A stretch of 64,000 nt of DNA from Elusimicrobiota bacterium. Its GTDB lineage: Bacteria > Elusimicrobiota > Elusimicrobia > UBA1565. Below the pieces are notes generated by a model. The model ran no database searches and was not told where the DNA came from. It worked only from the letters and a program-made list of their open reading frames with translations. Numbering within the stretch: position 1 is the stretch's first letter; the number at the start of each line of letters is the position of its first letter. Location: assembly GCA_002401485.1 (NCBI GenBank), contig NVTF01000002.1, positions 4,299 to 68,298 of the forward strand, given 5' to 3'. This document shows positions 14,120 to 64,000 of this stretch, one piece after another. The position numbers were made by a program, and so were the translations under genes.

Positions 14120-14165
14120 CCCACCCCGCTTGACGGGGCGGGACTCACCTCGTACCCTATTCGCG

Positions 14166-37104: not shown

Positions 37105-37160
37105 TATCAACAGCGAAAAATCGCTTTACAAAAGGCTCTTCGCGGAAACAGGAGAATGAA

Positions 37161-39503: not shown

Positions 39504-39574
39504 TTTCCCGCTAATTTCGTAGAAATAAGCCGGGCATTTCGGCAATCCCCGGTGTATAGTAAGAGAAGTTTAGT

Positions 39575-46400: not shown

Positions 46401-49400
46401 AATACAGCGGAGAAATTTCAGACACATCCAACTTTGCGTCAATTCTGGCGGAAAGCCCCTTCGGTACCGACACCTTCGTCAGCATCACCAATCTCAATGC
46501 CAACACAACCTTTTATCTTCGCGTACGCTCTCGGAACTGGAACGGGGTTGAGTCATCCACGATCGCTCTGCCGACGGCAGTCACCCTTGCCGCCCGTCCC
46601 ACCTCGGGGCTGCCGACCGATGTACTCGACACGCGCCTGAGCGCCCATTGGAACGTCGGCAGCAATCCCGTGGGAACCGAATTCTCGGTTGAGATCGCAT
46701 CCGACCCGACCTTCACAGACGATTTCCAAGCCTCCGCGTTTCAGGCCGATATGACAAGTTTCACCTTCCTAAACCTGTCGCTTGACACGACGTATTACAC
46801 CCGTGTCCGCGGACGCAACCACGCAGGAGTGCCCAGTTCCTATTTTTCGTTGGTCTCCACAAAAACACTCCCGTTCGAGGCCGTGCTGCCGCCCATCAAC
46901 ATCCAAATCGCGACGATCACAACAACCGATCTCGGCTATTCCTGGACCTTGCTTTCCGCCGCCCAATCGCCCTTCTATGTCTTTGGAGAAGACCCGTTGT
47001 ATGCAGTCACCGTGACTTCGGAGTCTGGGGGTGTTAACCAAAGCAGCCATGTGGTATCAGGGCTCTCCATCAACACGTCCTACTTCTTCCAAGTCAAGGT
47101 CGCAACCGCACCCGATTTTTTCTACTCGATCACCTTCGAAACAGCAACCCATGCCAATCCCCCAACATCCCAGCCCAGCGTCGTGCTCTCGAGTGCAAAC
47201 ATCCAGGTCGACTGGAACGTCAATGGGAACCCGCCCGGGACTCAATTTCTCGCAGAGCTCTCATTTAACGCGGGGTTTGGCGGCATCGCGAGTGCCAGCC
47301 CATGGACCGGCGCGTCACAGTTTATCGCTCCCGGCCTGACGCCCAACACCACGTATTACATACGCGTTCGCGGGAGAAACAGTTCAAACGTTCATACCGC
47401 GACCGTTCCCTTAAACGCGCAGTGTACGTTCGCAGACGTCATAGCACCGTCACTTGCACCCGCACCCGGGCCGACCCAAATGGGTCTCACATGGGTGCGT
47501 GCGGCCAATCCGCTCGGAACCGAGTTCAAGTCGGAGATCGACGATGACCCGGCGTTTGGAACTCCTGATGCAACGACCTGGTTGACCGGAACTGCAACGA
47601 CTTTCTTCAATCTAACCCCGAACACGACCTATTATTCCCGCGTGCGGGCTCGCAATTGCCAAAACGTCGAAACCGCCAACATCATCCTCGCAACGACCGC
47701 GACCAGCGCGGCCATCCCCTCCGCCGACACGGCTTCCGGAATCACGATCAGCACCATCGTTGCGAATTGGGGAAGCAATGGGAATTCGGCCGGAACCGTG
47801 TACTCCGCGGAAATCGCGAGTGAAAACACGTTCGTCGTTAACTACGCATCCATCCCGTTCGCCGCTGTGTTTGCCTCAACCTTCACCGGGCTCGCAGCGA
47901 ACACGACGTATTACATACGGGTACGGGCCCGTAATTGGGCGGGATTAGAAACAGCCACCCAATTGCTGGCCCAAGAGTCCACCGACGCCGAGGGTCCCGG
48001 TTCCCAATCACCCACCGTGGTCACCAATGATCAAGTGACGCTCAACTGGTCCGCAGGCGGCAACCCCGCCGGAACTTTCTTCCAAACCGAGCGTTCGACC
48101 GACTCCAACTTTAACGGAACCTTATTCGCGTCTCCATTTTTGACGTCGACAAGCCATGCCTTTGGATCACTCATCGGAGGGACAACCTATTACTTCCGCG
48201 TGAAGGCGCGCAGTCACAACGGAAACGACACAGCCTGGGTCGCGCTTCCCTCAACCATGACCCTCCCCAGCCCTCCGACCTCGCAAATCCCGCAAAACGT
48301 TTTTGGATCACGATTGCGCGCCCATTGGGGAGTTCTTACCAATGCCATTGGGAGCCAATTCTTTGCCGCACTCTCAACAGGGACAAACTACACGGGGAGT
48401 CTCGACCAAAACACAGGATGGGTCACAGACCTCTCGAGCAACACCTTCCTGAGTCTCACCCTGGACACAACGTATTACACGCGGGTTAAGGCGAGAAACG
48501 CCAAGCTGGAGGAAAGCTCATTTACAAACCTGCCCTCCACACTGACCTTGAACTTTTTAGAGACGCTCCCACCGACATCGGTGAGCATCGATACCGTAAC
48601 CACGACATCGCTGGATGCCTCCTGGATTCTGGAAAACCCCACGATGGCGGCGCATTACAAGTTCTCAACACTCCTCAATTTCTCGACGATTGCATCGAGT
48701 GAGACGTTAGGGGTCGCCGTTTCCAGCATCAGCCTATCCCCCATCGCGCCAAACACAACCTTCTATTTTAAGATCAAGATATCCACCGCCGACGATCTCT
48801 TCTTCAGCGACGTCTTGTCGACTGCTACCGCTGTTCTCGATCCCGGAGTGCTCACCCCGGTGACGCTTTCCTCCGCGGATGTCGCAGCCCTCTGGGAGCA
48901 CACGGGAAATCCGGCGGGCACTGAATTCTTAGCGGAGCGGGCGACCAATCCGGGATTCTCGACCGGTCTTGCCAACGGAGGGTGGACGACCCTGAACGGA
49001 TCCACCTTCACAAGCCTAACGCCCAATACCACCTATTACCTCCGCGTTCGTTCGCGCGGACACAATTCGGCGGTCAAACCCCCCGTGGTACTGGGATCGA
49101 CGATCACACGCGCCGAAGTTCCGTCTAGTCCAACCAGCACTCTCCTGTCCTCCGCCGGAATTTTCGTTAGTTATTCGACCGGGTCCAATTCAGGGCCGAC
49201 GGAATTCCTGATTGAAATCTCAAGCGTCGCGGGATTTACACCTCTCACCGCAACAGCCGGATGGGCAACCATCCGCGAATCAACCTTTACGGGACTCATT
49301 CCAAATACGCTTTATTATGCGCGTGCGCAGGCGCGCAACGCGGCAAAAGAAGTCACTGCATTTGCAACGGTTCCCTCAACCCGCACATTCGCCCAACCTC

Positions 49401-52400
49401 CGAGCGCGCTTGGGCCCGTCCCAGTATTTGGCCGTACCTTAACGGTGAACTGGCTTGGGGGCAACAATCCCAGCGGCACCGAGTTTTTCGCGGAAGTCTC
49501 CACCGCAACCGGCTTCACAGGCTCCCTGGACCAAGACTCCGCGTGGATCACATCCCTGAGCCATACCTTTACCGGTCTTGCTCTGAACACGACGTATTAT
49601 TCCCGGGTGAGGGCTCGCAACGGAGACTTCGTCGCAACCCCGTTTACGGCTCTCTTCTCAACAATGACATTGCCGTTTGAGGATACACTGCCTCCCAATA
49701 ATATTCTCTACTCAACGGCCAGTCCAACCTCGGTGGATGTCTCCTGGAGCCTGCTCGTTGCGTTCCAAGCACCGTTTTACGCCCTCTCAACGGACCCAGA
49801 CTTCACCACAACGGCCTCTTCACAGGCCGGCATCCCCGGGCAGGAGAGTGTTTCAATCGGCGGGCTGACTGTCAATACGACGTATTACTTCAAAGTAAAG
49901 GTTTCGACCGCACAGGATCTTTTCTACAGCATGGCCATCGCAACGGCGACCGAAGCCGTTACACCGATCGTGGGGCCCGGGGTCACGCTTTCTTCATCGA
50001 ATATCTCTCTCACATGGGGCGGCAGCGCAAATCCGGCTGGGACCGAGTTTTTAGCCGAGGCTGCCGTTAATTCCGGATTTTCGGCCGGCCTTGCCAGCGG
50101 TCCATGGTCAGCAGGATTTTCATCAACCTTTAGCGCACTCTCAGTCAATACGACCTATTATCTGCGCGTCCGGGCGCGCAACCACTATGGGCATCCGACG
50201 CCGGCCGATGTCGCGGCGCCGATAGCCACGGACGCCGAACCTCCCACCGCGGGGGCCCCGACGAGCATCACCTCCGCGACCTTCGCCGCGAATTGGGGCG
50301 CCGCCTCAAACCCGGCCGGCACTTTGTTCCTGGTCGAGCGCGCGACAGACACCGCTTTTGGGGGCGCTCTCGTGAATTCGGGATGGTCCACCGCATTAGC
50401 CTCGACCTTTACGGCATTAATCCCGAACACGACCCATTTTTTGCGGGTGCGAGCCCGCAGCAACAACGGAAATCAAACAGCAAACACATCCTTACCCACG
50501 GTTCTGACGCTCGCCGAACCTCCCGCCAGCGCTCCCTTCACGAATGTATTCGATATCCAGCTGACGGCGCATTGGGGCCTGGGTGCAAATCCCAGCGGCA
50601 CGGAATTTTTCACCGAGTTATCGAGCGCCGCAGACTATTCAGGCAGCGCCGATCAAAATACCGGTTGGGCCGCCAATCTCTCCAGCAATACTTTCTTTGG
50701 ACTGGCGAAGGCGACAACCTATTACCTCCGCACAAAAGCGCGCAACGCCGCATTCATTGAAACAAGCTTTGTCCCCATCGGTTCAACCGTGACCCTGACG
50801 TTCGATGCGCTTTTGCCGCCCACTCAAATCGTCTTCACGACGGCGACGACAACGACCCTGGACGCGACCTGGACACTGGAGAACGCAAGCCAATCTCCGC
50901 TGTTCGCTCTATCCTCAGTCGATGACTTTGCGACAACAATCTCCTCACTGACAGGGAGCGTTGCACAATCGAGCGCGACCTTCAATGCATTGGCGATCAA
51001 CACCACGTATTACTTCAAGATCAAGGTTTCCACTGCCATTGACCTCTTCTACAGTTCTCCGATCTCAACGGCAACCCTTGCCGCCGTTCCCATCAGTTCT
51101 CCAAGCGTGATCATTTCGTCGGTAAGCCTGGCCGCACATTGGCTCCTGGGAGCAAACCCCACCGGGACTCAATTCCTGGCGGAGGCCGCGCTTGACACCT
51201 TGTTCTCCAGCGGGCTCTCCTCCAACGCGTGGACCTCGAATCTAGTCTCAAGCTTTACGGCATTATCGGTCAACGCGACCTACTATCTCCGCGTCGGCGC
51301 TCGAAATTGGAGCGGCATAAAAACAGCGACCGTCTCGCTGCCGACACGCGCAACCAACGCGGGACTTCCGGGAACCGGCACACCGGTCGTTCTTTCCTCC
51401 AACGACGCGCGGGGGGAATGGACCGCGGGCGTCAATCCGGCAGGCACACTCTTCCAGGCCTCACTCTCAACGGACTCCGCCTTCTCCCCCGCATCAACAG
51501 CGGCGTGGACCCCCTTGACCAATTCCACGTTTACCGGCCTGTCCGTGAATACAACCTATTACTGGCGCGTCCTCGCACGCAGTCATAACGGATCCCAAAC
51601 GGCGAATGTATCTCTCACAACCACGCCCACCCTCGCCGATATTCCGGTTGCAGGCACACCGGCCGCCATTTCCTCTACGAATGTGCGCGCCGATTGGAAC
51701 TCCGGGAACAACCCCGCAGGCACTGAGTTCCGAGCGGAACTGGCGACGGATTCCCTCTTCACAACCAATACCGCCTCCGCAAGCTGGACAATCCTGACAG
51801 ACTCCACCTTTACGGCGCTCACGCCCAATACAACCTACTATACGCGGGTTCGGGCCCGAAACCACGCAGGCGTCGAAACGTCTACGGTCGCATTAACAGA
51901 GGTTCCAACCAACGCAGCTATTCCGATCTCGCTGACTCCCGTCATTCTTTCGACAGCGGACTTCTCACTCTCCTGGACGGCAAACAACAACCCTGCGGGG
52001 ACCCTGTTCCTTGCGGAAATGGGCACCGACCCCGATATTTCGGCGGGTGTGCAGACGTCTGGATGGATCAACGCAACCTTCACCACCTTCACCGCGCTTT
52101 CTCCCAACACAACGTTTTACGCTCGCGTGCGGGCGCGCAACCACGCGGGAGTCGTGACGACAACCGACGCGGTGCGCACCGCAGTGAGTGCCGCCAAGGA
52201 TCCCGTCTCCATTGATCCCGTCGTATTATCGTCTGCAGACATCAGCGCCCGCTGGGATACCGATGGCAATCCATCCAATACGGAATTTTTTGCAGAAGCC
52301 GCGCTCAATTCCGGATTCTCCGTTGGACTCATGAACAACGGCTGGCTTACAGGATCGGCATCGACATTTACAACCCTCACGCCCAACACCAGTTATTATC

Positions 52401-55400
52401 TCCGCGTCAAAGCCCGCAGCCATGCGGGAGTCGAAACGGGCTTCACCACGCTTCCCACAACAATGACCTTCTCCGACCCGCCGACCTCCCAGCCGCTCAC
52501 CCGCGTCTTCGGGTCGAAGCTCACGACGCATTGGGGATCCGCCTCCAATCCGCCGGGGACGCGTTTTTCCGCGGAAGTATCGACAGCAACCGATTTCACC
52601 GGATCCAATGACCAAACAACCGCATTCATAGCCGAATTGAGCTATACCTTTGTCGGCCTGATTCTTGATACGACGTATTATTCCCGCGTTCGTGCTGAGA
52701 ATCTTCGCGGCGCGCTCTCTGCTTACACGGCTCTCCCCACAACAACAACACTCGCCAGCGAAACGCTGCCTCCAACCAACATCTCATTTGACACCGCCAC
52801 AGCAACCAGTCTCGATGCTTCGTGGATCCTCGATAACCCGACCCAAACACCTTTCTACGCCCTCGACGTATCTTCGGCATTTGCGGCTCCGGCCTCTTCG
52901 GTGACGGGATCGGTCGGCCAATCGAGCGCTTCGATCGGGGGACTAATCCCCAACACCACCTATTGGTTTGTGATCAAGGTTTCGACCGCGTTGGATATTT
53001 TTTACAGCATCCCGTTAGCATCACCGACGTTGGCAGCGGCCCCGACCTCAGGTGCCTCCGGTGCGGTTTCCGACGGCTCGATTCTTGCGGTCTGGAATGC
53101 CAACGCCAATCCTGCCGGAACAGAATTTTTCGCCGAACGCGCCCTTGATGCAGCGTTTACAGCCAGCCCGACGAACTCGGGCTGGATCACCAACACGAGT
53201 TTTATCTTCAGCCCGCTCTCTGCCAACACAACGCAATATATTCGCGTCCGCGCGAGAAATCTCAATCGTGTGGAAACGTCAACCGTTTCCCTTGGCGCCG
53301 TAGTCACGCTTGCCAAACTCCCCAGCGCCCCCGCCAGCGTCGGTCTCTCTTCGGCTGATGTATTCGTCTCCTGGTCTACCGGAACCAATCCCACGGGAAC
53401 CCAATTCTTGGTTGAAATATCGACCCACGCCGGGTTCGCAACTCTCGCGGATTTTGCGGGATGGACGGATTTTCGCGAATCCACGTTTACGGGGCGAACC
53501 CCGAATACGCTCCACTATAGCCGCGTTAAGGCCCGCAACGCCGTCAACATTGAAACGAGCTTCGTCGCTATCCCGTCCACCTGGACGTTTGCCGAGCAGC
53601 CTTCCACCGGGGCCCCAACAAACATTCTAGGAGAAGCAATTACAACGACCTGGGGGATTGGCGGCAACCCCGCAGGAACCGAATTCTTCGTTGAAATATC
53701 CACGGCGGTGAGTTTCCTTGGGAACGCCGACCAGAACTCCGGCTGGGTCACAACCTCCTCGCATACATTTAACGGCCTTATACTGGCCACCACCTATTAC
53801 TCCCGCGTTAAAGCGCGCAACGGCGTTTTACAAGAAACCGCCTTCACAATCCTGGCCGCAACCCTCACCCTTCAAAGTCAATCTGCCCTTCCCCCGACAA
53901 ATATTCAGTTTACAACCGCGAGCGTCGTATCCCTGGACCTCTCTTGGAACATGAGAAACCCAACGGAAGCACCGCTGTACGCCCTGTCGTTGTTTCCCAA
54001 CTTCATCACCACGATCTCCTCCCAAACGGGGACCCTCGGGCAAGAAAACGTCACTCTTACCGGCCTCGGCGCCAACACCACGTATTACTTTAAGATAAAG
54101 GTCTCCACCAGCCAGGATCAATTCTACAGCTCGGTCATCAGCACCGCCACACAAGCGAAGGACCCGGGCGCGCCTGCGGCTGTCGCAATCTCTTCCAACG
54201 ACTTGCAACTGGATTGGAATGCCAACGGCAATCCCGCCGCGACCGAATTTCTAGCGGAGGCGGCATTGGACTCCGGGTTCACGGTTGGTTTGACCAGTGG
54301 CCCATGGGCAGCCGGAACCTCCTCAACATTCACGTCCTTGAGCGTGAACACCACTTATTTCACCCGTGTACGCGCCCGCAACCACAATCATCATCACACG
54401 GATCTCGTTTCCGCCTCGGCCGCGGCAACACTCGCCGAACCTCCCAGCACGAGTGCCATCGTTTTTGCCAGCACATGGATTACGGTTAATTGGATTCTCG
54501 GCGCCAATCCCGCCGGAACCGAATTCCGTGCGGAGGCTTCAACCGATGCAGTCTTCGCAGCGGCATTCTCCCAATCGGGCTGGGTCACAGGATTCTCCGA
54601 GACCTTCACGTCCCTAATCCCCAATACCACGTATTACCTGCGGCTGCGCGCACGCAGCCACTCCGGGACGGCAACCACCGCCTCCCAATTTCCAAACGTG
54701 CATACCCTTGCGTTCACACCGGGCTCACTCAGCCCGGATCGAAAATTCGCCACACGCATCACCAACCAATGGCTTCGCCTTTCCAACCCGCTGGTCACCG
54801 AGTTTTTCACTGAAATTTCCACCGCCGCTGATTATTCCGGCGCCGCCGACCAAAATTCAAATTGGGTTGCGAATTCGAGTCACACCTTTACCGGCTTGAT
54901 CGTCAATACCACTTATTATTCCCGGGTCAAAGCGCGCAACGGGCTCGGCGTTGAAACGGCAATCACGATGCTGCCGACAACAACAACACTCTTAACCGAA
55001 ACCCTTCCCCCCGACGGCATACGCTTCGATACCGCGACGGTATCGACGCTTGATGTCTCGTGGCAGCTGGATAACCCGACGCAAACACCCTTCTACGCCC
55101 TGTCACTCGTTTCAAATTTTGCAACGACGATCTCCTCGACCATCGGCGCATTAGCGCAATCGAGCGCCTCAATCGGCGGCCTTTCCCTTAACACGACGTA
55201 TTGGTTTACGATCAAGGTTTCAACCGCCATCGATCTTTTTTACAGCAATCCCATCGCGACCCCGACGCTCGCCGGCGTCGCGGCAAGTTCTCCAAGCGTC
55301 ACACTAACTTCCACCAGTCTTCAAGCGCATTGGCTGATCAATGGAAATCCCGGGGGGACTGAGTTCCTGGCGGAGGCCGCGCTGGACCCATCCTATACAA

Positions 55401-58400
55401 GCGGCGTCGCGTCAGGCACATGGGCGACGCCCCTGGTTTCAACGTTTACGGCGTTGTCGGTCAATGCCACCTATTATCTGCGCGTTCGCGCGCGCAATTG
55501 GGCGGGCATAGAAACCTCAACCCTAACACTGCCGGAAACGGTCACGCACGCCGCGCTGCCTTCGACAGCCGCAACAGCCGCTCTTTCAACCGGGTCGCTT
55601 GCTGCCACTTGGACTGCGAATTCAAACCCGGCAGGGACTCTCTATATTGCGGAAACCTCCACATCGGCGGCCTATGACACCCTCGCGACTACCGGATGGA
55701 ACGCCGTGGCGTCGGCGACATTCACCGCCCTCCTGCCCAATGCCACCTATTATCTGCGTGTACGCGCGCGCAATCACGCGGGCGTCGAAACCGTGAACGT
55801 CAATTTCGATCCGCGCGCAACCGACGCACGCGACCCGCTCACCGGCACACCGGTGACGCTTTCCTCCGCGGATCTGCGGGCGGTGTGGGGTGCAGACACA
55901 AACCCGGCCTCAACCCACTACTTCAGCCAGATCTCACTCGACGCCGCGTTCACAACGGGATTGGCCTCAGCGGGCTGGGTAACCGGAACAACCTCTACCT
56001 TCTCCGCCTTGGTCCCCAATACGAGTTATTACCTCCGGGTAAAGGCGCGCAGCCATGGAGGCGTCGAATCCGGCTACACCACACTCCCGACAACCATGAC
56101 CTTCGCCCGACCGCCGGCTTCCCTCATCGGAGAACAGGTGTTTGCCACTCAGCTGACCGCACGCTGGGACGTTTTGAACAACCCGGTCGGCACGGAATTT
56201 TTGGCCCAATTGTCGACCGCTGCGAATTTCAGCGGAACCTTGCTGCCCTCCGGGTGGACGACAAATTCGAGCCATACATTTACAGGTTTGAGCAACACGA
56301 CGACCTATTACTCCCGCGTGCAAGCGAGGAATGCACATCTGGCGGTGTCGGCATTCACGTCTCTGCCGACCACGGTAACCCTGACAGCGGAAGCGCTGCC
56401 GCCGACGAATATCCTCTTCGCTACCTCAACTTCAACCACCCTCGATGTGTCGTGGACACTAGACAATGCAAGCCAGGCGGCCTTCTTCGCCTTAGGAATC
56501 TCCTCCAATTTTGCAGCACCGATTTCCTCCGCGACCGGCAATGTCAATCAATCAACGGCTTCGTTTGGCGCGCTCACCGCGAATACAACCTACTGGTTCC
56601 GCATCAAGGTTTCGACGGCATCCGATTTGTTCTACAGCGTCCCGATCGCAACCATGACGCGCGCTTCAGCTCCCCTCGCAGGCACACCCGTCGCCTTGTC
56701 TTCCGTTGCCCTGCGTGCGGGTTGGACCGCCAACGGAAATCCCGCAGGAACTCAATTCCTGCCGGAGGCCGCGCTCAACACCGTCTTCACCGTCGGCGTT
56801 GTGAGCGGAACGTGGACAACCGGCCTCACCCAGGATTTCTCAGGCCTTAGTTCCAACGCCACCTACTATCTTCGCGTGCGCGGCAGGAACGGACATCACA
56901 TCGAAACCGCCACAACCACATTGACGGCGACCGCCACCCACGCCGGCGCGCCGGGATCGGCGGCCGCCTCCCAGCAGTCCTCCACCACCGTCCGGGTCAA
57001 TTGGACGGCGAACGGAAATCTCTCGCCGACATCCTATGTGGCTGAAATCGCGACATCCGCGGCGTTCGCTTCGCTAACCGCTTCCTCGACAACCTTCGAA
57101 ACATTCGCGGACTTCGCCGGTCTCGATACCAGCAAACTCTACTTCTCCCGAGTATTGGCGATTGGGCATGGTGGGACCAACAGTGTAAACACCTCCCTGC
57201 CCGACGCGGTGACGCTTGCCACTGCACCAACCGGCGGCTCCATTATTTCCGTATTCGGGCAAAGCGTAACATTGGACTGGAACGTTAACGGAAATAATGT
57301 CGGCACTGAATTTCAACTCGAACATTCCACCGCCGCCAATTTCACCGGAACCCTCGTAAAATCATTGTGGATCACGCAGTCGTCGCACACCTTCGCAGCA
57401 CTGCAGGCAGTCACGACCTATTATTTCCGGGTCAAAGCCCGCAATCCGGGGTTAGTCGAGACCAACTTCCTCGTTCTTCCCTCTACGCTGACGTTAACTC
57501 CACCCAACGCACCCACCGCTGTCGCCTTCACCAATGCGACGATTGCTTCGCTGGACCTCGCCTGGACGCATGGCAACCTCGGCATCACCCCGCTTTACGC
57601 CCTTTCGACGCGCGACGACTTCGCGACCACGGTCAGTTCTCAAACGGGCGTAGTCAATCAAGAAACCGTCACGTTATCGGGACTTTCCGCCAACACAACC
57701 TATTATTTCAAGGTCAAATTCTCGACCGAAACCGATGACGGGTATTCCTTCCCGATCGCGACCGCGACGCTCGCCGCAGTCCCGTCGGCCCCGAGCCAAA
57801 CCGCCGTTACCACGCACTCCGTTTCCGCCTCCTGGAGCGGAGGCTCCAACGGACCCAATACCGTATATATTTGGGAACTGGACGATGATCCTGGATTCGG
57901 TTCCGTTGACGCCTCCAGCAGCACACTCACAACGGCCGCGACCATTGCCGGTCTCTTCGGAAATACCCGCTACTTCGGACGTGTGCGCGCCGTGAACCAC
58001 CAAGGCAACCCCTCGGAGAACTCCAGCCTCGGCGCCTTCGCTACCCTCGCACGGGCGCCCATCGCGGTTGCGTCGCCCTTTGTGACGGTAACCTTCACGA
58101 GCGTCACGGTTCAGTGGACGGCATTTCCTTCCTCACCCTCCAGCACCTCAGCGCAAGGTTTTGTTGTGGAAGCGTCCACCGCCTCCGATTTCTCGGGAAC
58201 AATTTCCTCCAATTCCATCCTGGCGTTGACGGACCGGCTCGCCCTCGCGGGACTCGCCGATTTGCCGACATTATTCTTCCGCATTGGATCGCTCAATCCG
58301 GATCTCACGCCTAATTATCTATCCCTAGGCTCGACCCTCCCACTCACGGCCGCAACGACCGGCCAGATGTTCATGAATGCAGAGCCGTTTAGCGTGACAC

Positions 58401-59077
58401 TCGCACCGTCAGATCCCGAGATATTGAGTGTAACCGTCAACATTCCCTCCAATTCGCTTCCGGAAGGAACGACTGTTGCGATCAACACCGGGGTCGCGTT
58501 CTTCCTGCCCCCGCCGATTTCCAATCAAATGTCGCTGACGCCGCTCGGAGGCGTCGGCATCGAAATCGACACCGGCGGCGTACAGCCGGTCAACCCGGTT
58601 ACAATCACGATGATCTACGACCCGGCCGCGCTGCCGTCGGGAAAAAATCCACGGTCTCTCATTATGGCGCGCTACGACGTCGCGTCCGCGCAATGGACCC
58701 TAATGCCCACAACCGTCGATACAATTGCCCGTTCCGTCACGGGCATTACCGATCATTTCTCTTTGTTCGCTCCGTTCTTTGCGACGGCCTCAACGGCATT
58801 CGACGCGATTCAAATCTTCCCTGTTCCGTGGGAACCCGGAGCGAACACTCAGTTTGACGCGCAGGTTCTAACCTTCTCCAACCTGCCGGGTGGGACCGAG
58901 GTTGAGATTTACTCCATTCTGGGCGAACGCCTGCGCCGAATGACCGCTCCGCCCAACGGCATCGTCCAATGGGACGGGCGAAACGGCAGCGGCACCCGTG
59001 CCGCTTCGGGCACCTATCTCGTGCTCTTCAAAAAGGATGGAGATCGTACGACGCGACGCGTGGTGGTAATCCGATGA
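43436..59077 (+). CDS. Giant (5,213-aa) secreted protein: ~50 tandem fibronectin-III-like repeats with a T9SS-type C-terminal sorting domain
   Basis: Single uninterrupted 15,642-nt ORF with a signal peptide (MLRITAVFFCVIASVPIFSGTSTA). Roughly 95-aa units recur with the [NT]TTYY[FLST][RK][VI][RK] hallmark of FN3 F-G strands. The C-terminal ~90 aa (IQIFPVPWEPG...VEIYSILGERL...WDGRNGSGTRAASGTYLVLFKKDGDRTTRRVVVIR) fits the Por_Secre_tail / FlgD-Ig-like CTD pattern. Confidence 0.85.
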   Translation: MLRITAVFFCVIASVPIFSGTSTAATPTSVQFTTATTDSIEITWTLESSGQIPLYALSTVENFSTTIASATGAVGQENILIQSLLKNTTYYFKVKVSTENDSTYTSTIALATLAAPPGAAPSVVLSSGDIIVSWTHDGNATDTEYSGELYEDPAFLTQLAVLPFQTGSSFTATDLDPNTTFYFRVRAQNRQGIVTGYRILPAALTHSSPAAASQPTNVFGARMTANWITDLSANTQYKAELSTVANFTGSNDQTTAFIAGANSNEFVGLLLGTQYFTRVKSRGFNLVESVYTTLPTTTTQVFLETPPPSNVLSSSATTTTLGYSWTMQNSNEAPLIALADNFDFTSLVSSLTAGVNQSSHQFTGLAINNTYWFKIKVSTANDFFYTVKIETATHAADPIASLTTVLSSADINVSWTANGNPPDTLYDVSIFDDDTYQNSLGKSGFTTVLNSTIPTLTPATTFYFHVQAFNRLLTPTTAVILTEAMTFAEPPTASQPQDVLDTKFRTHWNPGLNPPGVLFRAQLSTATNFTGSLDLTSGFVPDISSFTFSGLALGKTYYTRVQARNAAGQTTGFVNLPSTETLNQPAALPPTNIVAGTATLTAIDLDWKLGSPGQTPLFAISESSDFVTTVSSITGGIGQEIVSLGGLNANTTYYFKIKVSTVNDIFYSATLTTATLAAAPLSAAPVVISTSEIQANWTHGVNPTDTQYSGEYARIADFTSLDGSSDFSEGTSLNVPGLKSNTTYYFRIRARNRFEIQTTTTILPTAVTLAEDATAALLIDIFNTNFKLEWSTGTNPIGTEFFAETSTATDFSGSADINSSWLPNISSFTFVGLTPDTTYYAHVKSRNVAAVETAFTTTLSTLTTTIENIPAPTNILAGDVSTATLRINWTLGSPGQAPLYAFSTNSNFTTTFSSETGTVGQNTKTVLGLTPNATYYFKIKVSTANDFLFSPTFSTATHAQVPVSSPTLVTSSGSLLGQWGVDQNPPGTEYSGEISDTSNFASILAESPFGTDTFVSITNLNANTTFYLRVRSRNWNGVESSTIALPTAVTLAARPTSGLPTDVLDTRLSAHWNVGSNPVGTEFSVEIASDPTFTDDFQASAFQADMTSFTFLNLSLDTTYYTRVRGRNHAGVPSSYFSLVSTKTLPFEAVLPPINIQIATITTTDLGYSWTLLSAAQSPFYVFGEDPLYAVTVTSESGGVNQSSHVVSGLSINTSYFFQVKVATAPDFFYSITFETATHANPPTSQPSVVLSSANIQVDWNVNGNPPGTQFLAELSFNAGFGGIASASPWTGASQFIAPGLTPNTTYYIRVRGRNSSNVHTATVPLNAQCTFADVIAPSLAPAPGPTQMGLTWVRAANPLGTEFKSEIDDDPAFGTPDATTWLTGTATTFFNLTPNTTYYSRVRARNCQNVETANIILATTATSAAIPSADTASGITISTIVANWGSNGNSAGTVYSAEIASENTFVVNYASIPFAAVFASTFTGLAANTTYYIRVRARNWAGLETATQLLAQESTDAEGPGSQSPTVVTNDQVTLNWSAGGNPAGTFFQTERSTDSNFNGTLFASPFLTSTSHAFGSLIGGTTYYFRVKARSHNGNDTAWVALPSTMTLPSPPTSQIPQNVFGSRLRAHWGVLTNAIGSQFFAALSTGTNYTGSLDQNTGWVTDLSSNTFLSLTLDTTYYTRVKARNAKLEESSFTNLPSTLTLNFLETLPPTSVSIDTVTTTSLDASWILENPTMAAHYKFSTLLNFSTIASSETLGVAVSSISLSPIAPNTTFYFKIKISTADDLFFSDVLSTATAVLDPGVLTPVTLSSADVAALWEHTGNPAGTEFLAERATNPGFSTGLANGGWTTLNGSTFTSLTPNTTYYLRVRSRGHNSAVKPPVVLGSTITRAEVPSSPTSTLLSSAGIFVSYSTGSNSGPTEFLIEISSVAGFTPLTATAGWATIRESTFTGLIPNTLYYARAQARNAAKEVTAFATVPSTRTFAQPPSALGPVPVFGRTLTVNWLGGNNPSGTEFFAEVSTATGFTGSLDQDSAWITSLSHTFTGLALNTTYYSRVRARNGDFVATPFTALFSTMTLPFEDTLPPNNILYSTASPTSVDVSWSLLVAFQAPFYALSTDPDFTTTASSQAGIPGQESVSIGGLTVNTTYYFKVKVSTAQDLFYSMAIATATEAVTPIVGPGVTLSSSNISLTWGGSANPAGTEFLAEAAVNSGFSAGLASGPWSAGFSSTFSALSVNTTYYLRVRARNHYGHPTPADVAAPIATDAEPPTAGAPTSITSATFAANWGAASNPAGTLFLVERATDTAFGGALVNSGWSTALASTFTALIPNTTHFLRVRARSNNGNQTANTSLPTVLTLAEPPASAPFTNVFDIQLTAHWGLGANPSGTEFFTELSSAADYSGSADQNTGWAANLSSNTFFGLAKATTYYLRTKARNAAFIETSFVPIGSTVTLTFDALLPPTQIVFTTATTTTLDATWTLENASQSPLFALSSVDDFATTISSLTGSVAQSSATFNALAINTTYYFKIKVSTAIDLFYSSPISTATLAAVPISSPSVIISSVSLAAHWLLGANPTGTQFLAEAALDTLFSSGLSSNAWTSNLVSSFTALSVNATYYLRVGARNWSGIKTATVSLPTRATNAGLPGTGTPVVLSSNDARGEWTAGVNPAGTLFQASLSTDSAFSPASTAAWTPLTNSTFTGLSVNTTYYWRVLARSHNGSQTANVSLTTTPTLADIPVAGTPAAISSTNVRADWNSGNNPAGTEFRAELATDSLFTTNTASASWTILTDSTFTALTPNTTYYTRVRARNHAGVETSTVALTEVPTNAAIPISLTPVILSTADFSLSWTANNNPAGTLFLAEMGTDPDISAGVQTSGWINATFTTFTALSPNTTFYARVRARNHAGVVTTTDAVRTAVSAAKDPVSIDPVVLSSADISARWDTDGNPSNTEFFAEAALNSGFSVGLMNNGWLTGSASTFTTLTPNTSYYLRVKARSHAGVETGFTTLPTTMTFSDPPTSQPLTRVFGSKLTTHWGSASNPPGTRFSAEVSTATDFTGSNDQTTAFIAELSYTFVGLILDTTYYSRVRAENLRGALSAYTALPTTTTLASETLPPTNISFDTATATSLDASWILDNPTQTPFYALDVSSAFAAPASSVTGSVGQSSASIGGLIPNTTYWFVIKVSTALDIFYSIPLASPTLAAAPTSGASGAVSDGSILAVWNANANPAGTEFFAERALDAAFTASPTNSGWITNTSFIFSPLSANTTQYIRVRARNLNRVETSTVSLGAVVTLAKLPSAPASVGLSSADVFVSWSTGTNPTGTQFLVEISTHAGFATLADFAGWTDFRESTFTGRTPNTLHYSRVKARNAVNIETSFVAIPSTWTFAEQPSTGAPTNILGEAITTTWGIGGNPAGTEFFVEISTAVSFLGNADQNSGWVTTSSHTFNGLILATTYYSRVKARNGVLQETAFTILAATLTLQSQSALPPTNIQFTTASVVSLDLSWNMRNPTEAPLYALSLFPNFITTISSQTGTLGQENVTLTGLGANTTYYFKIKVSTSQDQFYSSVISTATQAKDPGAPAAVAISSNDLQLDWNANGNPAATEFLAEAALDSGFTVGLTSGPWAAGTSSTFTSLSVNTTYFTRVRARNHNHHHTDLVSASAAATLAEPPSTSAIVFASTWITVNWILGANPAGTEFRAEASTDAVFAAAFSQSGWVTGFSETFTSLIPNTTYYLRLRARSHSGTATTASQFPNVHTLAFTPGSLSPDRKFATRITNQWLRLSNPLVTEFFTEISTAADYSGAADQNSNWVANSSHTFTGLIVNTTYYSRVKARNGLGVETAITMLPTTTTLLTETLPPDGIRFDTATVSTLDVSWQLDNPTQTPFYALSLVSNFATTISSTIGALAQSSASIGGLSLNTTYWFTIKVSTAIDLFYSNPIATPTLAGVAASSPSVTLTSTSLQAHWLINGNPGGTEFLAEAALDPSYTSGVASGTWATPLVSTFTALSVNATYYLRVRARNWAGIETSTLTLPETVTHAALPSTAATAALSTGSLAATWTANSNPAGTLYIAETSTSAAYDTLATTGWNAVASATFTALLPNATYYLRVRARNHAGVETVNVNFDPRATDARDPLTGTPVTLSSADLRAVWGADTNPASTHYFSQISLDAAFTTGLASAGWVTGTTSTFSALVPNTSYYLRVKARSHGGVESGYTTLPTTMTFARPPASLIGEQVFATQLTARWDVLNNPVGTEFLAQLSTAANFSGTLLPSGWTTNSSHTFTGLSNTTTYYSRVQARNAHLAVSAFTSLPTTVTLTAEALPPTNILFATSTSTTLDVSWTLDNASQAAFFALGISSNFAAPISSATGNVNQSTASFGALTANTTYWFRIKVSTASDLFYSVPIATMTRASAPLAGTPVALSSVALRAGWTANGNPAGTQFLPEAALNTVFTVGVVSGTWTTGLTQDFSGLSSNATYYLRVRGRNGHHIETATTTLTATATHAGAPGSAAASQQSSTTVRVNWTANGNLSPTSYVAEIATSAAFASLTASSTTFETFADFAGLDTSKLYFSRVLAIGHGGTNSVNTSLPDAVTLATAPTGGSIISVFGQSVTLDWNVNGNNVGTEFQLEHSTAANFTGTLVKSLWITQSSHTFAALQAVTTYYFRVKARNPGLVETNFLVLPSTLTLTPPNAPTAVAFTNATIASLDLAWTHGNLGITPLYALSTRDDFATTVSSQTGVVNQETVTLSGLSANTTYYFKVKFSTETDDGYSFPIATATLAAVPSAPSQTAVTTHSVSASWSGGSNGPNTVYIWELDDDPGFGSVDASSSTLTTAATIAGLFGNTRYFGRVRAVNHQGNPSENSSLGAFATLARAPIAVASPFVTVTFTSVTVQWTAFPSSPSSTSAQGFVVEASTASDFSGTISSNSILALTDRLALAGLADLPTLFFRIGSLNPDLTPNYLSLGSTLPLTAATTGQMFMNAEPFSVTLAPSDPEILSVTVNIPSNSLPEGTTVAINTGVAFFLPPPISNQMSLTPLGGVGIEIDTGGVQPVNPVTITMIYDPAALPSGKNPRSLIMARYDVASAQWTLMPTTVDTIARSVTGITDHFSLFAPFFATASTAFDAIQIFPVPWEPGANTQFDAQVLTFSNLPGGTEVEIYSILGERLRRMTAPPNGIVQWDGRNGSGTRAASGTYLVLFKKDGDRTTRRVVVIR
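43500..58300 (+). repeat. Coding tandem-repeat array: 13 super-repeats of A-B(n)-C FN3-like units (~845 to ~1,950 nt each)
   Basis: A-type units (...TTYYFKIKVSTAxDxFYS) begin near 43711, 44551, 45400, 46245, 47089, 48770, 49890, 51010, 52960, 54080, 55200, 56590 and 57700. Between them lie 1-5 B-type units (...TTYYLRVRARNHAGVET) and one C-type unit (...TTYYSRVKARN). Nucleotide identity between equivalent units is roughly 75-85%. Confidence 0.8.
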
Positions 59078-60108
59078 GGATACTCAGCGCGCTTCTTACT
59101 GTACTGCTCGCGAGTCAGCCCGCGTCCGCCCTCAGCAGCAACCGCGGGGGAGCGGCGATGGAATTCCTTCGCATCGGCGCAGGAGCGCGGGCGCTTGGAA
59201 TGGGAGATGCGTTTGCGCCCATCGCCGAGGGCGCCGACAGCGTTTATTGGAACCCGGCAGGCATGGTCCAAAGTCGGCATCTCGAAATCTCGGCGACGCA
59301 TATCGATATGCTCGAGTTTTTCAGTCATGACAACTTCGCCGTTATCAAACCCTTCCCCAAATCCCGCAACGCAATTGGATTCTCCGCGACCTTCTTCTCG
59401 CAGGACAGCCTCAATCGCGTGTCCAACACAAACCAACAACTCGGCTCTTTTAGACCCCACAGCGAGTCATTTTCCTTTGCGGTGGCTCATGCCTTCGGCA
59501 AAGGCGATACACTGGCGGACAGCGGAGGTCTCTACGATTTCAAAGACAGGTCCATTTATGAGATCAACCGACGCGGAGACCGGAGCCGTCACTTCCGCGC
59601 CGGCAATGTAATGGTCGGAGCCGCCGTAAAACACGTACGGGAAACTCTCAATACACGAACGGCGACCGCGTTGGCCATCGACTTCGGAGTACTCGCACGT
59701 CCGGAGTCGATCCCGGAATTATCAATTTCCGGAACGATTCGAAATTTCGGATCGCGACCGAAATTCATAAACGAACTGCAGGATCTACCGACGGAATTCT
59801 CGGCTGGAGCCGCGTACAACATTTCGAGCCAACGCCGACGCTTCCTAACCGCCGTGGAAGCCATCGTCCCAATCTACGGAACACCGTACGGAAAATTAGG
59901 ATTCGAATATTCGCTCGCGATTTCCGGTTCCAGCTTCATTTCTTTCCGAGGCGGCTATAAATCGTTGTCGGCGCCGACGCTGGGAATCGCCAGCGGCGTC
60001 ACAGGAGGCATCGGGTTCGGGTTCGGTCGTTTTACGTTCGATTTTGGATTCCAGCCGATGGGGGATCTTGGGGAGGCTTATCGTGGCAGCGCCGGTTTCA
60101 GATTCTAA
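59074..60108 (+). CDS. PorV/PorQ-family-like outer-membrane beta-barrel protein (putative T9SS cargo shuttle)
   Basis: ATG at 59074 overlaps the giant gene's stop (ATGA). Signal peptide MRILSALLTVLLASQPASA; the N-terminal AAMEFLRIGAGARALGMGDAFAPIAEGADSVYWNPAGM matches the hallmark of PorV/PorQ-family proteins; C-terminal ...GSAGFRF ends in Phe as in OM barrels. The 58969 start given in the ORF table lies inside the giant gene. Confidence 0.6.
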   Translation: MRILSALLTVLLASQPASALSSNRGGAAMEFLRIGAGARALGMGDAFAPIAEGADSVYWNPAGMVQSRHLEISATHIDMLEFFSHDNFAVIKPFPKSRNAIGFSATFFSQDSLNRVSNTNQQLGSFRPHSESFSFAVAHAFGKGDTLADSGGLYDFKDRSIYEINRRGDRSRHFRAGNVMVGAAVKHVRETLNTRTATALAIDFGVLARPESIPELSISGTIRNFGSRPKFINELQDLPTEFSAGAAYNISSQRRRFLTAVEAIVPIYGTPYGKLGFEYSLAISGSSFISFRGGYKSLSAPTLGIASGVTGGIGFGFGRFTFDFGFQPMGDLGEAYRGSAGFRF

Positions 60109-60110
60109 CT

Positions 60111-63100
60111 CATGACTTCTCGCTTCCCTTATTTTCGATTTCTACTCGCGCTGCTGCTCTTGGGGGCAGGATTTGCGCCGCGCGTTGGCGCGGTCGAGAA
60201 ACTTGATGGCCGCCTGCGGCTTCTCCAACAGCAATCGAATTCGGGCGGTGGGTATCGCACGGCTGACGTTGACGACACCGGACCGATTATTTTGGTCCCG
60301 ATCTTCATCGAAATCAATTCCTGGGCCACGCGGGATATTTTGGTGGCTCGGTATCCTGAAATACGGTTCTCAGGGCAACACGGCAATATCCTGACGGGGC
60401 GCTGCCCCATCTCGTCGCTGGCAGCCTTAGCCGCCGACCCCGATGTACTGCGCGCCCAAGCCGGCACCCAGCAGCGCCCCCTGCTCAACGTCGTAAAGTC
60501 GACGATCATAACCTCCGGAAACTTTCTCGGAATTGTCGATGAGGGGTCTCCGAACTTCGGAACCCGGGATGGGAGCAACGTCATTTTCGGCATCGTTGAC
60601 AGCGGCGTCGACTACACACACGAGGATTTCATTACCGGCGCGGGATTTACCCGCATCCTCTTTCTCTGGGATCAAACCGATGAAATCGGGGCTCCGGGGA
60701 CCTTCCATCCCGATGGGTTTACAGTCGGGACCGAGTGGACCGAGGCTCAAATCAACGATGAAATTGACGGCTCTCCCGCCGGCAACGTGCGCCAAACCGA
60801 TACCGTCGGCCACGGCACACACGTCCTCGGCATCGCCGCGGGCGACGGAAGCGCAACGGACGGCGACGTAGCGGCCAATACATTTGTCGGAATTGCACCC
60901 GACGCCGACATCATTGTGGTCAAAACCACATTATTTAATACCGACATTTTGGACGGCGTGCGCTACATTGTCGACAAAGCGGCCTCCCTCGGTAAACGTG
61001 CGGTGATCAATCTCAGCCTCGGGTCCCACTCGGGTCCGCACGACGGCACGAGTTCGTATGAAACAGGCATCGCACTGGTCGCCTCCACCGTTCCCGTTGT
61101 CATCGCGATGGGCAACGAGGCCGCAAGTGCGATTCACGCGGCCGCAACCGTCGCCCCGGCCGGTGAAGAAACATTTCAGTTTACGTTGGCCGGATCTCCG
61201 TCTTCCGTTGAGACGGAGTTCTGGGTGCCCTCAGGAGACCTGTATACGGTTACGGTGACAACCGCGGCAGGAGGCTCGGGTGCTGTATCGGCAACTCCGG
61301 GTCAGGATATCTCGAGCACCATCGGAGCCCTGAATGTCGCGATTTTTAACTCACCGACGAGCCACCCGGCGGGAGACCGCCAAATCCTCATCCGACTGAC
61401 CCAGAGCCCGAGCATAAATGCAACCAACTTTTTTGTTCGCATGCAGCGCAGCGCCAGCGGCGGATCCGGCCGAGTCGACGCCTGGATTGTAAACTTCGCG
61501 AACGTCTCCTGGGTTAATTTCATCGAATCAAGCCGTACGATCAGCGTTCCCGCTACCGCCAACAATGTTATTGCAGTTGGGTCCTATTGTTCCAAACGGA
61601 CCTGGACCGCCGATGACAATCTCGTCTACAACGACACGTCCTGCACCGCCGGTTTGCTGGGCGATATTTCCAATTCCAGCTCGCTCGGTCCTACACGTGA
61701 CGGACGCCTCAAACCCGATGTTGCCGCACCCGGCCAACGGGTAGCGTCCGCCCAATCCGTGAGCAACACCGGTGAACCTATCGCCAATATCCAAAAGGAC
61801 GGAAAACACCGGCTGATTAGCGGGACGAGCATGGCGAGCCCGGTCATCGCCGGGGCCGCGCTGCTTGCTCTCGAATCGGATCCGGACCTGACGGTTGAGG
61901 AATTTAGAACCTTGATTACCAGCCACGCTCGCGTCGATGCGAAGGTGGCGGCCCACGGGGCCACTCCCAACACCTTATGGGGGTACGGCAAGGCCCGGAT
62001 ATTTGGATGCGGGGACGTCATCGTCTCCTCCGCCGCATCCGTTGTCTCCGATGTACTGGGAACCTCTTCAATTTCATGGAACTGGTCCCGGGTGGCCGGC
62101 GCGCAGGACTACAATCTCTATTTTGCCGATACACTGGCGCTGATCACGAACGTATCCGCTACAACCTATCTTCAGACCTCCCTCCAAGGAAATTCGACGG
62201 TCCAGTTCCTCGTGCGCGGCAACAACGCCTGCGGCGAGGGCCCCGACGGGGTTTCAGCCTCCACCTCGACCCTCTCGATTTTAACCGCCGCGCCGGTGTT
62301 CAGCGTATTCGAATCAAGCATCACGGGCGTATTTGGAGTGCTGCCGACCTCCCCCCGTTCCGCTTCCAGCTTCGGATACCAACTAGACGCCTCAACAACA
62401 GCCGATTTCTCCGCAACGATAATCACGTCCGCAACCCCCAACAATCAAAACGGATCGCTGACCGTGACGGGGTTGCTGGCGTTTACGTCGTATTACATGC
62501 GACTGGGAACTCTCAATGAAGTGGGAGGCGTTAATTTCGCGTTGCTCGGCATTCAATTTACAGAAACCCCTTTAAACCCTCCCGGCATCGCGGTTTTTAC
62601 CAACGTCACCGAGACTCAGATTGAGGCGAATTGGGTTCTCAACGGAAACCCCGCAGGCCTCGAGTATATCGCCCAAACATCGACCGCCTCTGATTTTTCG
62701 GGAACATTGCTGAGCAGCCAGACATTCGCGCTCAAGGCCCTCTTCACCGGGTTGACCGAGAATACGCAATACCACTTTCGAGTCCGCGCCACCGAAGGTC
62801 CGTTTGCCTCCCTCAATTTTGAAGAAACACTCTCCGCCGCTCCGAAGATTTCTACTCCCGCGTTTACATCCGTCAGCCGCACAAGCGTCACGGTTGCGTG
62901 GAATGATCTCATCAACCCAGCGGGAACACAGTACAGGGCTCAAATTTCTCCGGCAGCGGATTTTGCGGTTTCGGTCATCTCCTCCGACACCCTTAATCTA
63001 ACCGCGACCTTCACAGGGCTCCTCGGAAATACGACCTACTACTTACGCACGGCGTCGCTTGGCATCGGAGGCGGTCTCAGCGCGTTTGACACCATCACGG

Positions 63101-64000
63101 CAAGTCCGACACTCACCAATGCTCCAACCTCTGCGGCTCCGCCGATCACAGGGGTATTTGCCTCATCGATCACGGTGGCGTGGAATGCCCTGCCAACCAC
63201 CCCCCCGGATCAAAGTGCCGAGGGATACCGCGTCGACGCGTCCACCGCCTCGGATTTTACCGGGACCTTAACCAGCCAGTTCATTTTCTCTCCGACCGCA
63301 AACTCATTAACCGTCTCCGGGCTGCTTCAAGACACAACCTACAATTTCCGCGTCGGCGCGCTTAATTGGCAAAACATCCCGTCCTACCTTGCGCTCGGAT
63401 CGACCAAAACGGTAGGCCAGATCTTATCCTCGGGAACAGCCGTAAGCGGTCAAGCAATAACTCTCAATGTAAATCCCTCTGTCCCCGAGATTGTCACAAT
63501 TCAAGTCAAGGTACCGGCCAACACGTTCCCCGCCGGCACCGAAGTAGGGGTGAACGCGACAATCGGGACACTCCTGGCACCCCAATCAAGCCAGGGATCG
63601 GTCACCCTCCTTTCCGACCAAATCGGCGTCGATATTACCGCCTCTAACGGGAATCAACCGGTCAATCCCGTCGAAGTGCTCTTTACCTATTCCCCGGCAC
63701 AAATCCCGCCAAACATCAATCTCGATACGATCATTATCGGAAGATTGGATGGAGACAGTCCCTTGTGGACGCTGCTTCCTACGGTTCACGACCCGGTCAC
63801 AAGACAGTTCAAGACAGTCACAACTCATTTCTCTATTTTTTCGCCCTTAATCGTGACGGCATCGACCGATCTCGATGACATCCAAATATTCCCCGTGCCG
63901 TGGAAGACAGGAACCGGGGACCCCTTCTTTGATGCGTCGTTTCTCAGTTTCACCAATCTCCCTGCGGGCGGAAGAATCACCCTCTACACGATGCTCGGAG
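60111..64000 (+). CDS. Secreted subtilisin-like (S8) serine protease with FN3-like repeats and the same T9SS-type C-terminal module; 3' end truncated by window
   Basis: Frame was not flagged in the ORF table because it has no stop before the window end. Signal peptide MTSRFPYFRFLLALLLLGAGFAPRVGAV; catalytic triad GIVDSGVD (Asp), GHGTHV (His), GTSMASP (Ser); FN3-like units (NTQYHFRVRATEG, NTTYYLRTASLG, DTTYNFRVGALN); terminal ...DIQIFPVPWKTGTGDPFFDASFLSFTNLPAGGRITLYTMLG parallels the giant protein's C-terminus. Confidence 0.85.

Follow-up and report, generated by a model that had tools for sequence, protein, structure and literature searches.

The window analysed here, a 64-kb (64,000-nucleotide) stretch of an Elusimicrobiota contig, contains an operon in which a giant protein of 5213 amino acids and an S8 protease end in the same C-terminal module. 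As modelled, this module consists of a ZU5/GPS-type beta-sandwich, termed here the pre-CTD domain and distinguished by a near-invariant His-Phe-Ser (H-F-S) motif, followed by a C-terminal sorting domain (CTD) of the kind that type IX secretion system (T9SS) proteins carry. Each of the two genes is followed by an overlapping gene for an outer-membrane barrel of the PorV/PorQ family, and this two-gene cassette recurs across Elusimicrobiota. The domain identities, the conservation, the pairing and the overlap are observed. From them we lean, with a confidence a little better than even, towards a mode of surface display in which the CTD docks on its dedicated barrel and the pre-CTD domain provides a self-cleaved, releasable junction.

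The initial annotation of the window had proposed that the giant protein and the protease share a C-terminal module beginning at 58340. The translation of 58340-59077 is exactly the giant C-terminus quoted there (the last 246 codons), and the protease frame at 60109-63999 includes the C-terminal sequence quoted for the second protein; the complete 1346-residue protease was read from locus L001, the same contig in another assembly (ENA ERZ23499281, 11039-15079). BLASTP aligned the C-terminal regions over 346 residues with 41% identity (E = 1e-76), and the giant module with the complete protease module over 237 residues, again with 41% identity and through the final arginine (E = 2e-63). When the shuffled-sequence control named in the annotation was run, the module pair gave a Smith-Waterman score of 376 against 38.9 +/- 6.5 in 300 shuffles (z = 51). 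A tblastn search found no third copy in the window. The proposal of a shared module is thus confirmed to the last residue, as is its description as more than a short tag; a conserved two-domain unit of folded domain and CTD stands behind differing passengers. The proposed start does not hold, as the similarity continues upstream across the last fibronectin type III (FN3) domain, from approximately 57914 in the giant gene and 62980 in the protease gene.

The terminal FN3 of the giant protein is closer to that of the protease (44% identity, 97.8 bits) than to any of the approximately 50 FN3 repeats of the giant itself (at most 36.6% and 71.6 bits), and the mobile unit appears to comprise FN3, ZU5-like domain and CTD, together with the barrel. 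These terminal FN3 domains (57914-58336 and 62980-63408) form a distinct subtype with the motif SAQGF/AEGYRVDASTASDF, common to both cargo proteins and to relatives P0003, P0016 and P0022. A recent duplication or gene conversion of the module was considered and rejected. The operon reads as two tandem cassettes, and their duplication is judged to be old because the two copies are only 41% identical, whereas each has a 65%-identical orthologue in another metagenome-assembled genome (MAG), which for the giant module lies at locus L005.

The fold of the module emerged once its family was aligned. A single-sequence AlphaFold2 (AF2) model had a mean predicted local distance difference test (pLDDT) score of only 39.6, whereas the model built with a 39-sequence alignment reached a pLDDT of 95.2 and a predicted template modelling (pTM) score of 0.87. 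In the latter model, residues 5-148 form a 12-stranded sandwich, which a short linker joins to the 7-stranded CTD of residues 157-244. The best full-domain Foldseek matches of the pre-CTD domain in the PDB are ankyrin ZU5 domains (3f59_C, template modelling (TM) score 0.60 by target over 162 columns; 3kbt_D, TM 0.62; probability 1.0), with further matches to 3ud1, 4d8o and entries of the ZU5-ZU5-UPA arrangement. The modelled domain is accordingly a beta-sandwich of the ZU5/GPS superfamily with a ZU5-type fold. Relatives retrieved by the module profile (E = 1e-22 to 1e-27) exceed the Pfam ZU5 gathering score of 21 (PF00791), namely P0179 with 30.3, P0176 with 27.7, P0178 with 26.4 and P0174 with 24.1 bits, and P0178 and P0174 are also above the threshold of Por_Secre_tail (PF18962). 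The more distant relative P0133 passes Pfam GPS (PF01825; 27.8 bits against a threshold of 22.5) over the stretch ...SVSHLTTFAML, and its SHLTTFAML segment aligns with the H-F-S turn of the module profile. A word-index search returned no homologues of the pre-CTD domain alone, and similarity between the window's own copies and eukaryotic ZU5-superfamily domains is below detection by sequence.

The H-F-S motif occupies module residues 138-140, in the turn between model strands 131-136 and 141-148 and directly before the last strand of the sandwich. Of 116 aligned modules (the AF2 model and the PDB profile used the 39-sequence alignment), 114 retain His138; position 139 holds Phe in 104 and Leu in 12, position 140 holds Ser in 112 and Thr in 4, and position 142 holds Phe or Tyr in 115. 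These positions rank with Trp118 (116/116) and Pro82 (115/116) among the most conserved of the pre-CTD domain in a family whose members are otherwise approximately 25-45% identical. The pattern H-[FL]-[ST]-x-F fits the GPS motif, H-L-[ST]-x-F-A, as illustrated by the SHLTTFAML of P0133. The Phe-to-Leu and Ser-to-Thr replacements would keep a buried hydrophobic residue and a nucleophile, as expected for autoproteolysis, and from these sequence patterns we infer self-cleavage of the ZU5-like domain between the Phe and Ser of H-F-S. In ZU5-like domains the published cut sites, between F and S of S-F-S or H-F-S, lie in the turn that leads into the last long strand (PMC3210808), which matches the position of the motif here. 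Nup98 and GAIN domains, like ZU5 domains, self-cleave at this place in the fold. Zhang et al. (2012) united ZU5, GPS and Nup98 domains in one autopeptidase superfamily and predicted ZU5 autoprocessing for large bacterial surface proteins (PMC3482391).

The tail of the module is a T9SS-type CTD, closest to that of PorZ. The 39-sequence module profile matches the PorZ CTD in the PDB (5m11_A, residues 668-758; E = 1e-14), and Foldseek searches with the modelled CTD returned PorZ (5m11, E = 2e-6), PorU, the mirolase CTD (TM 0.67) and the translocon-bound CTD of NucA (8glk_D, TM 0.72). The CTD of the giant protein matches the PorZ tail model of NCBIfam (9.8e-7) and falls just short of the cut-off of TIGR04183 (22.4 bits against 23). 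A flagellar FlgD domain was also considered as the identity of the tail and rejected, as the FlgD_ig matches are weak (23.7 bits against a cut-off of 27 for the giant CTD) and cover the CTD partially, whereas the PorZ match extends over its whole length. Calling these proteins T9SS cargo would nonetheless be an assumption, because the T9SS is described as a system of Bacteroidota or of the Fibrobacterota-Chlorobiota-Bacteroidota (FCB) superphylum in PMC9143113 and PMC10994853, and the host here belongs to Elusimicrobiota.

The protein encoded directly downstream of the giant gene (PCI40666.1 at NCBI, annotated as a hypothetical protein) scores 111.8 bits against NCBIfam NF033709, the PorV/PorQ family model, with a cut-off of 90, and a profile of 14 barrel orthologues has a single PDB match, PorV of F. 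johnsoniae (6h3i_F, E = 3.6e-12). Its PorQ score is higher than its PorV score. By these profile scores the barrel is a member of the PorV/PorQ family and not an orthologue of PorV, PorQ or PorV2, because it falls far below the cut-offs of all three equivalog models. The two barrels of the operon are 47% identical, and the first is 65% identical to its orthologue at L005.

The pairing of cargo and barrel extends well beyond the window. A PorV-like open reading frame (ORF) lies directly downstream on the same strand at all 29 module loci of the genome collection as well as in the window, L001 and L005, and such a gene also directly follows the cargo at L033, L034 and on the contig of P0091. The small ZU5-plus-CTD protein P0174 is paired in the same manner, as is a second subfamily recognizable by HFSLFQ... 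FPNPFRPS... KVAVQR. In 28 of 33 cases the junction is a four-nucleotide ATGA or GTGA overlap, nearly always literally CGATGA, which may explain the near-invariant C-terminal arginine of the CTD. No other genes are conserved around the cassette, with only histidine kinases, GT2, RNase III and NuoB recurring in subsets of closely related MAGs. Pairing also occurs for CTD-bearing cargo without a ZU5-like domain, at L020, L028 and L034 and in Zixibacteria P0188. Because such CTD-only cargo also has a PorV-like partner, CTD-barrel pairing is the more general arrangement, with the ZU5-like domain often inserted between the passenger and the CTD. CTD-only mini-cassettes or other cargo followed by a PorV-like gene were noted at L020 (6078-8224), L028 (6507-8008), L034 (1-1695) and L035 (5001-8749), one of them in a Zixibacteria MAG; one-barrel-per-cargo pairing may be widespread beyond Bacteroidota. 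Two further proposals of the initial annotation can thus be refined. Its Ig-like stalk is indeed a folded domain in front of the CTD, and one more specifically of the ZU5/GPS superfamily with a near-invariant H-F-S motif. The module is indeed shared by the neighbouring cargo genes, and each of these genes in addition makes up a two-gene cassette together with a PorV/PorQ-like barrel gene of its own directly downstream, a link that the initial annotation did not draw.

Used as queries in an exhaustive HMMER search, the two window copies retrieved 1026 cluster representatives at E <= 1e-3, 94 of them at E <= 1e-10. Among the 150 best of these, the domain stops 81-94 residues short of the C-terminus in about 125, and the H-F-S motif lies at a fixed distance of 102-107 residues from that end. 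With a narrowed alignment as query, the genome collection yielded the 29 module loci, 26 of which are labelled as Elusimicrobia or Elusimicrobiota MAGs and three only as 'bacterium'; the single giant module as query found no relatives in that collection. Named relatives are almost all from Elusimicrobiota, named members of the second subfamily included, and the cassette is, judged from these assignments, widespread in the phylum. A close module-bearing S8 protease, P0010 (MBI3505127.1, on a 331-kb contig), is labelled 'Proteobacteria bacterium', which reflects either a mis-binned or mis-classified MAG or an occurrence of the cassette beyond Elusimicrobiota. The passengers include 18 S8 proteases recognized by similarity to the window protease and three more by Pfam Peptidase_S8, in addition to S53 pro-kumamolisin enzymes, GH141/beta-helix enzymes, He_PIG repeats, NHL repeats and FN3 arrays, and the proteins are annotated as 'hypothetical protein' or by the passenger domain alone. 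Six relatives without a CTD (P0122, P0125, P0129, P0132, P0134 and P0184) carry an HF[ST] domain directly before a C-terminal transmembrane helix and a basic (RRRK) tail. In these proteins the domain is sometimes tandem, and CARDB or cadherin-like domains are present. They have the look of surface proteins from monoderms or archaea, with a juxtamembrane arrangement resembling that of GAIN or SEA domains. Because the CTD-less relatives place the domain before a transmembrane helix, the ZU5-like domain is anchor-proximal whichever anchor is used.

We propose that a cargo composed of a Sec signal peptide, a variable passenger, the terminal FN3, the ZU5/GPS sandwich and the CTD would be exported by Sec, while the next gene, translationally coupled through the CGATGA overlap, would supply a dedicated PorV/PorQ-like barrel, with the coupling favouring one-to-one production. 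The CTD may dock on the loops of its cognate barrel, much as PorV binds type A CTDs and PorQ holds the uncleaved CTD of PorZ, and so keep the passenger at the cell surface. The ZU5-like domain would undergo an N-to-O acyl shift between the Phe and Ser of H-F-S, and the passenger would then be held non-covalently because the last beta-strand (S-L-F-A-P-F-F) would remain embedded in the sandwich. Force or unfolding could then open such a junction, as in GAIN, FIIND or SEA domains.

Several points weigh against this model of docking and self-cleavage. Neither window copy of the pre-CTD domain has a Pfam match even at E <= 10, NCBIfam gave no match and PDB sequence searches returned noise only, so that a direct ZU5 sequence match is absent; because the window copies lack a match while relatives pass PF00791 or PF01825, membership in the ZU5/GPS profiles is transitive, and the link runs through fold matches and relatives. 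Ankyrin and UNC5 ZU5 domains do not self-cleave, and folding by itself can account for the conservation of a buried Phe and the residues around it. We infer the binding of CTD to barrel from homology and gene coupling, and the barrel could act as a carrier in a complete T9SS instead of anchoring its cargo permanently. In a mirror-tree comparison, barrel divergence correlates with that of the CTD (r 0.72, partial r 0.46) and of the ZU5-like domain (r 0.71, partial r 0.44) to a degree that does not separate the contact domain. Finally, the ZU5-like domain is not required for cargo/barrel pairing, because CTD-only cargo with a PorV partner exists.

One alternative, which we consider rather unlikely, gives the pre-CTD domain a purely structural role, as a rigid, non-cleaving stalk between passenger and CTD or membrane in which H-F-S is kept for folding. 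There are ZU5 domains that do not cleave, the top structural match is the ZU5 domain of ankyrin, and the pTM of 0.87 suggests rigid packing of the two domains. Against a mere stalk, three motif positions are 98-100% kept in a family of 25-45% identity, the only replacements are Ser to Thr and Phe to Leu, and the motif equals the GPS consensus. Literature precedents fall on both sides, as mutation of the His in Nup98 affects cleavage only mildly, so that conservation of the His by itself is no proof of catalysis, whereas UNC5b lacks the motif and has Leu-677 at the Phe position (PMC3210808). In the main rival account, these proteins would be ordinary T9SS cargo, served by a complete but unlinked T9SS (SprA/Sov, GldKLMN and PorU) in which a PorU-type sortase removes the CTD, the barrels are substrate-specific carriers shuttling from the translocon and the ZU5-like domain is a spacer. 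The CTD and barrel are clearly homologous to T9SS parts, and type B CTDs have dedicated PorP/SprF-like carrier or anchor proteins whose genes lie beside those of the cargo (PMC10994853 and PMC9143113). We nevertheless consider this account improbable. The T9SS is described for Bacteroidota/FCB (PMC10994853) and nearly all named relatives are Elusimicrobiota. No T9SS core genes were found in the window or in the approximately 20-kb loci, none is conserved near the 29 loci, and we found no literature linking Elusimicrobia with the T9SS or PorV. Moreover, one barrel per cargo and the conserved overlap suggest a complex of fixed stoichiometry and not a recycling shuttle, and the near-invariant H-F-S would be left unexplained.

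A further possibility is that export across the outer membrane is the work of the PorV-like barrel itself, with the CTD targeting unfolded cargo to its cognate 14-stranded barrel, in conjunction with the barrel assembly machinery (BAM), in a T9SS-independent manner resembling two-partner secretion. The self-contained and translationally coupled gene pair without other conserved neighbours would suit such a scheme, as would its occurrence in a phylum not known for the T9SS. To our knowledge, however, no FadL/PorV-family barrel exports proteins, and we know of no precedent for the export of a 5213-residue protein through one. In T9SS complexes of solved structure, the part played by PorV is confined to binding the folded CTD at SprA's lateral gate (PMC10994853), and we regard a barrel exporter as very unlikely. 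The proposed docking and self-cleavage could also be taken further, to a minimal T9SS-independent two-gene system in Elusimicrobiota and perhaps other non-Bacteroidota diderms. Here the barrel would be the only dedicated partner, the CTD a permanent dock, self-cleavage between F and S of H-F-S a replacement for the PorU sortase step, and the outcome a mechanically releasable, GAIN-like junction on adhesins and exo-enzymes. We put this forward tentatively and think it doubtful; if true, the two-gene system could be the ancestral module behind the CTD/PorV carrier step of the T9SS.

The closest experimentally characterized analogue is the PorZ-PorQ pair, together with PorU-PorV of the P. gingivalis attachment complex. 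The PorZ CTD is uncleaved and PorZ is held at the surface by the PorQ barrel (PMC10947112), and cryo-EM shows PorV loops wrapping a CTD (PMC10994853). The present cassette shares a C-terminal beta-sandwich CTD on a surface protein and a PorV-family barrel, and retention by the barrel would be analogous. Unlike in PorZ-PorQ, each cargo has its own downstream barrel gene, the start of which overlaps the cargo stop; enzymes and adhesins, not T9SS components, serve as passengers; the CTD comes after a ZU5-like domain; and the host phylum is Elusimicrobiota. In the SprB-SprF pair, the barrel is encoded adjacent to the cargo gene. Systems such as SprB-SprF and PG1035-PorP resemble the cassette in placing a CTD cargo gene beside a dedicated barrel gene; PorP/SprF-like barrels hold cargo with type B CTDs at the surface (PMC9143113). 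The CTD here is instead PorZ/type-A-like and the barrel PorV/FadL-like rather than PorP/SprF, and, in contrast to the cassette, that source describes no autoproteolysis-type domain.

With the ZU5-superfamily autopeptidases (PIDD, UNC5CL, the FIIND of NLRP1 and CARD8, Nup98, the GPS/GAIN of adhesion G-protein-coupled receptors and polycystin-1), the pre-CTD domain shares its modelled fold and an H-[FL]-[ST] motif in the turn before the last strand. It adjoins a membrane anchor as GAIN does before the seven-transmembrane region, and the outcome expected by analogy would be two fragments sharing one beta-sheet. Unlike in the eukaryotic autopeptidases, the setting is bacterial and extracellular, and a secretion or anchoring CTD follows rather than UPA or a seven-transmembrane region. 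The bacterial ZU5 proteins in the available excerpts of Zhang, Iyer, Aravind et al. (2012) are likewise surface proteins with adhesion modules and degradative enzymes, whereas in the polymorphic toxins treated there ZU5 is N-terminal and coupled to TcdB/TcaC export; those excerpts mention neither a fusion to a T9SS-type CTD, nor a PorV-like partner gene, nor Elusimicrobiota (PMC3482391).

The CTD, the PorV family and the ZU5 autopeptidases, including the 2012 prediction for bacterial surface proteins, are thus known parts. Our literature searches found no description of a ZU5-like domain fused to a T9SS-type CTD, of an obligatory downstream PorV-like gene with a conserved overlap, or of the concentration of such a cassette in Elusimicrobiota. 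In the cassette, the CTD and the PorV-family barrel, the two T9SS parts nearest to the substrate, occur in a phylum outside the known range of the system with one barrel per cargo, and this bears on the evolution of the carrier/anchoring step and on surface display in deep-branching diderms. It also provides a large, clean bacterial family (more than 1000 clusters) with a ZU5/GPS-type motif at the junction of passenger and anchor, in which the 2012 autoprocessing prediction and the idea of a force-releasable adhesin become directly testable with a 244-residue construct. Combined with the neighbouring barrel, the module profile would serve to enumerate the surface proteome encoded by Elusimicrobiota MAGs.

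Features of the tandem cassettes in the window, with positions on the 64-kb stretch.
Feature	Position	Strand	Evidence
Giant cargo gene, 5213 aa: signal peptide, ~50 FN3, ZU5-like domain, CTD	43436..59077	+	ORF; Pfam fn3
Terminal FN3 of giant, part of shared unit	57914..58336	+	Closer to protease FN3 than to the giant's internal FN3s
ZU5/GPS-like beta-sandwich (pre-CTD domain) of giant, as modelled	58349..58786	+	AF2 model; Foldseek; Pfam matches of relatives
H-F-S motif, putative autoproteolytic site, predicted cut between F and S	58754..58762	+	Translation; conservation; position in model
T9SS-type CTD of giant	58811..59074	+	Profile; Foldseek; NCBIfam
PorV/PorQ-family outer-membrane barrel gene, 344 aa, signal peptide	59074..60108	+	NF033709; start overlaps giant stop (ATGA)
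S8 subtilase cargo gene, 1346 aa when complete, cut by window end: signal peptide, S8, FN3, ZU5-like domain, CTD	60112..64000	+	Pfam
ZU5/GPS-like domain of protease; HFS at 63826-63834	63457..63879	+	Alignment to domain of giant
Protease CTD, beginning only; window ends inside CTD	63880..64000	+	Complete CTD in L001

Signal peptides are present on all three proteins of the operon, that of the giant lying in the N-terminal sequence MLRITAVFFCVIASVPIFSGTSTAA. The giant gene is called identically in two other assemblies, and its two halves match Pfam fn3 with 273.7 and 271.2 bits. The protease frame is open from 60109 with the gene start at the ATG at 60112, and its Pfam matches are Peptidase_S8 (3.7e-33) and fn3 (1.2e-20). 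The operon is tightly packed, as the giant stop overlaps the PorV-like start at 59070-59080 (cgATGA), the protease ATG lies 3 nucleotides past the PorV-like stop at 60105-60115, and in L001 the protease stop overlaps the start of the second PorV-like gene at 15072-15082. That gene has the same ATGA overlap, begins at L001 15076 and has a full-length orthologue at L005 15804-16838. In L001 15076-15442 it ends after 58 codons, and a small RelE/ParE-like ORF lies behind it where the contig ends; a break in the assembly, a chimera or a genuine disruption could account for this.

The remainder of the window consists of housekeeping genes. Five ORFs of 227-562 amino acids (14082-15584, 16181-17560, 28716-29918, 29938-31626 and 34717-35400) have no Pfam match at the thresholds used. 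The G+C content dips to 0.49 at 36001-40000, against 0.53-0.58, over two genes, one for a phosphate-selective porin O/P (35996-37063) and one for a HAMP-PAS histidine kinase (37161-39503). Across the giant gene (44001-60000), the GC skew of -0.15 to -0.20, compared with -0.05 to -0.13 in most other parts of the window, probably reflects the Thr/Ser/Ala-rich FN3 repeats.

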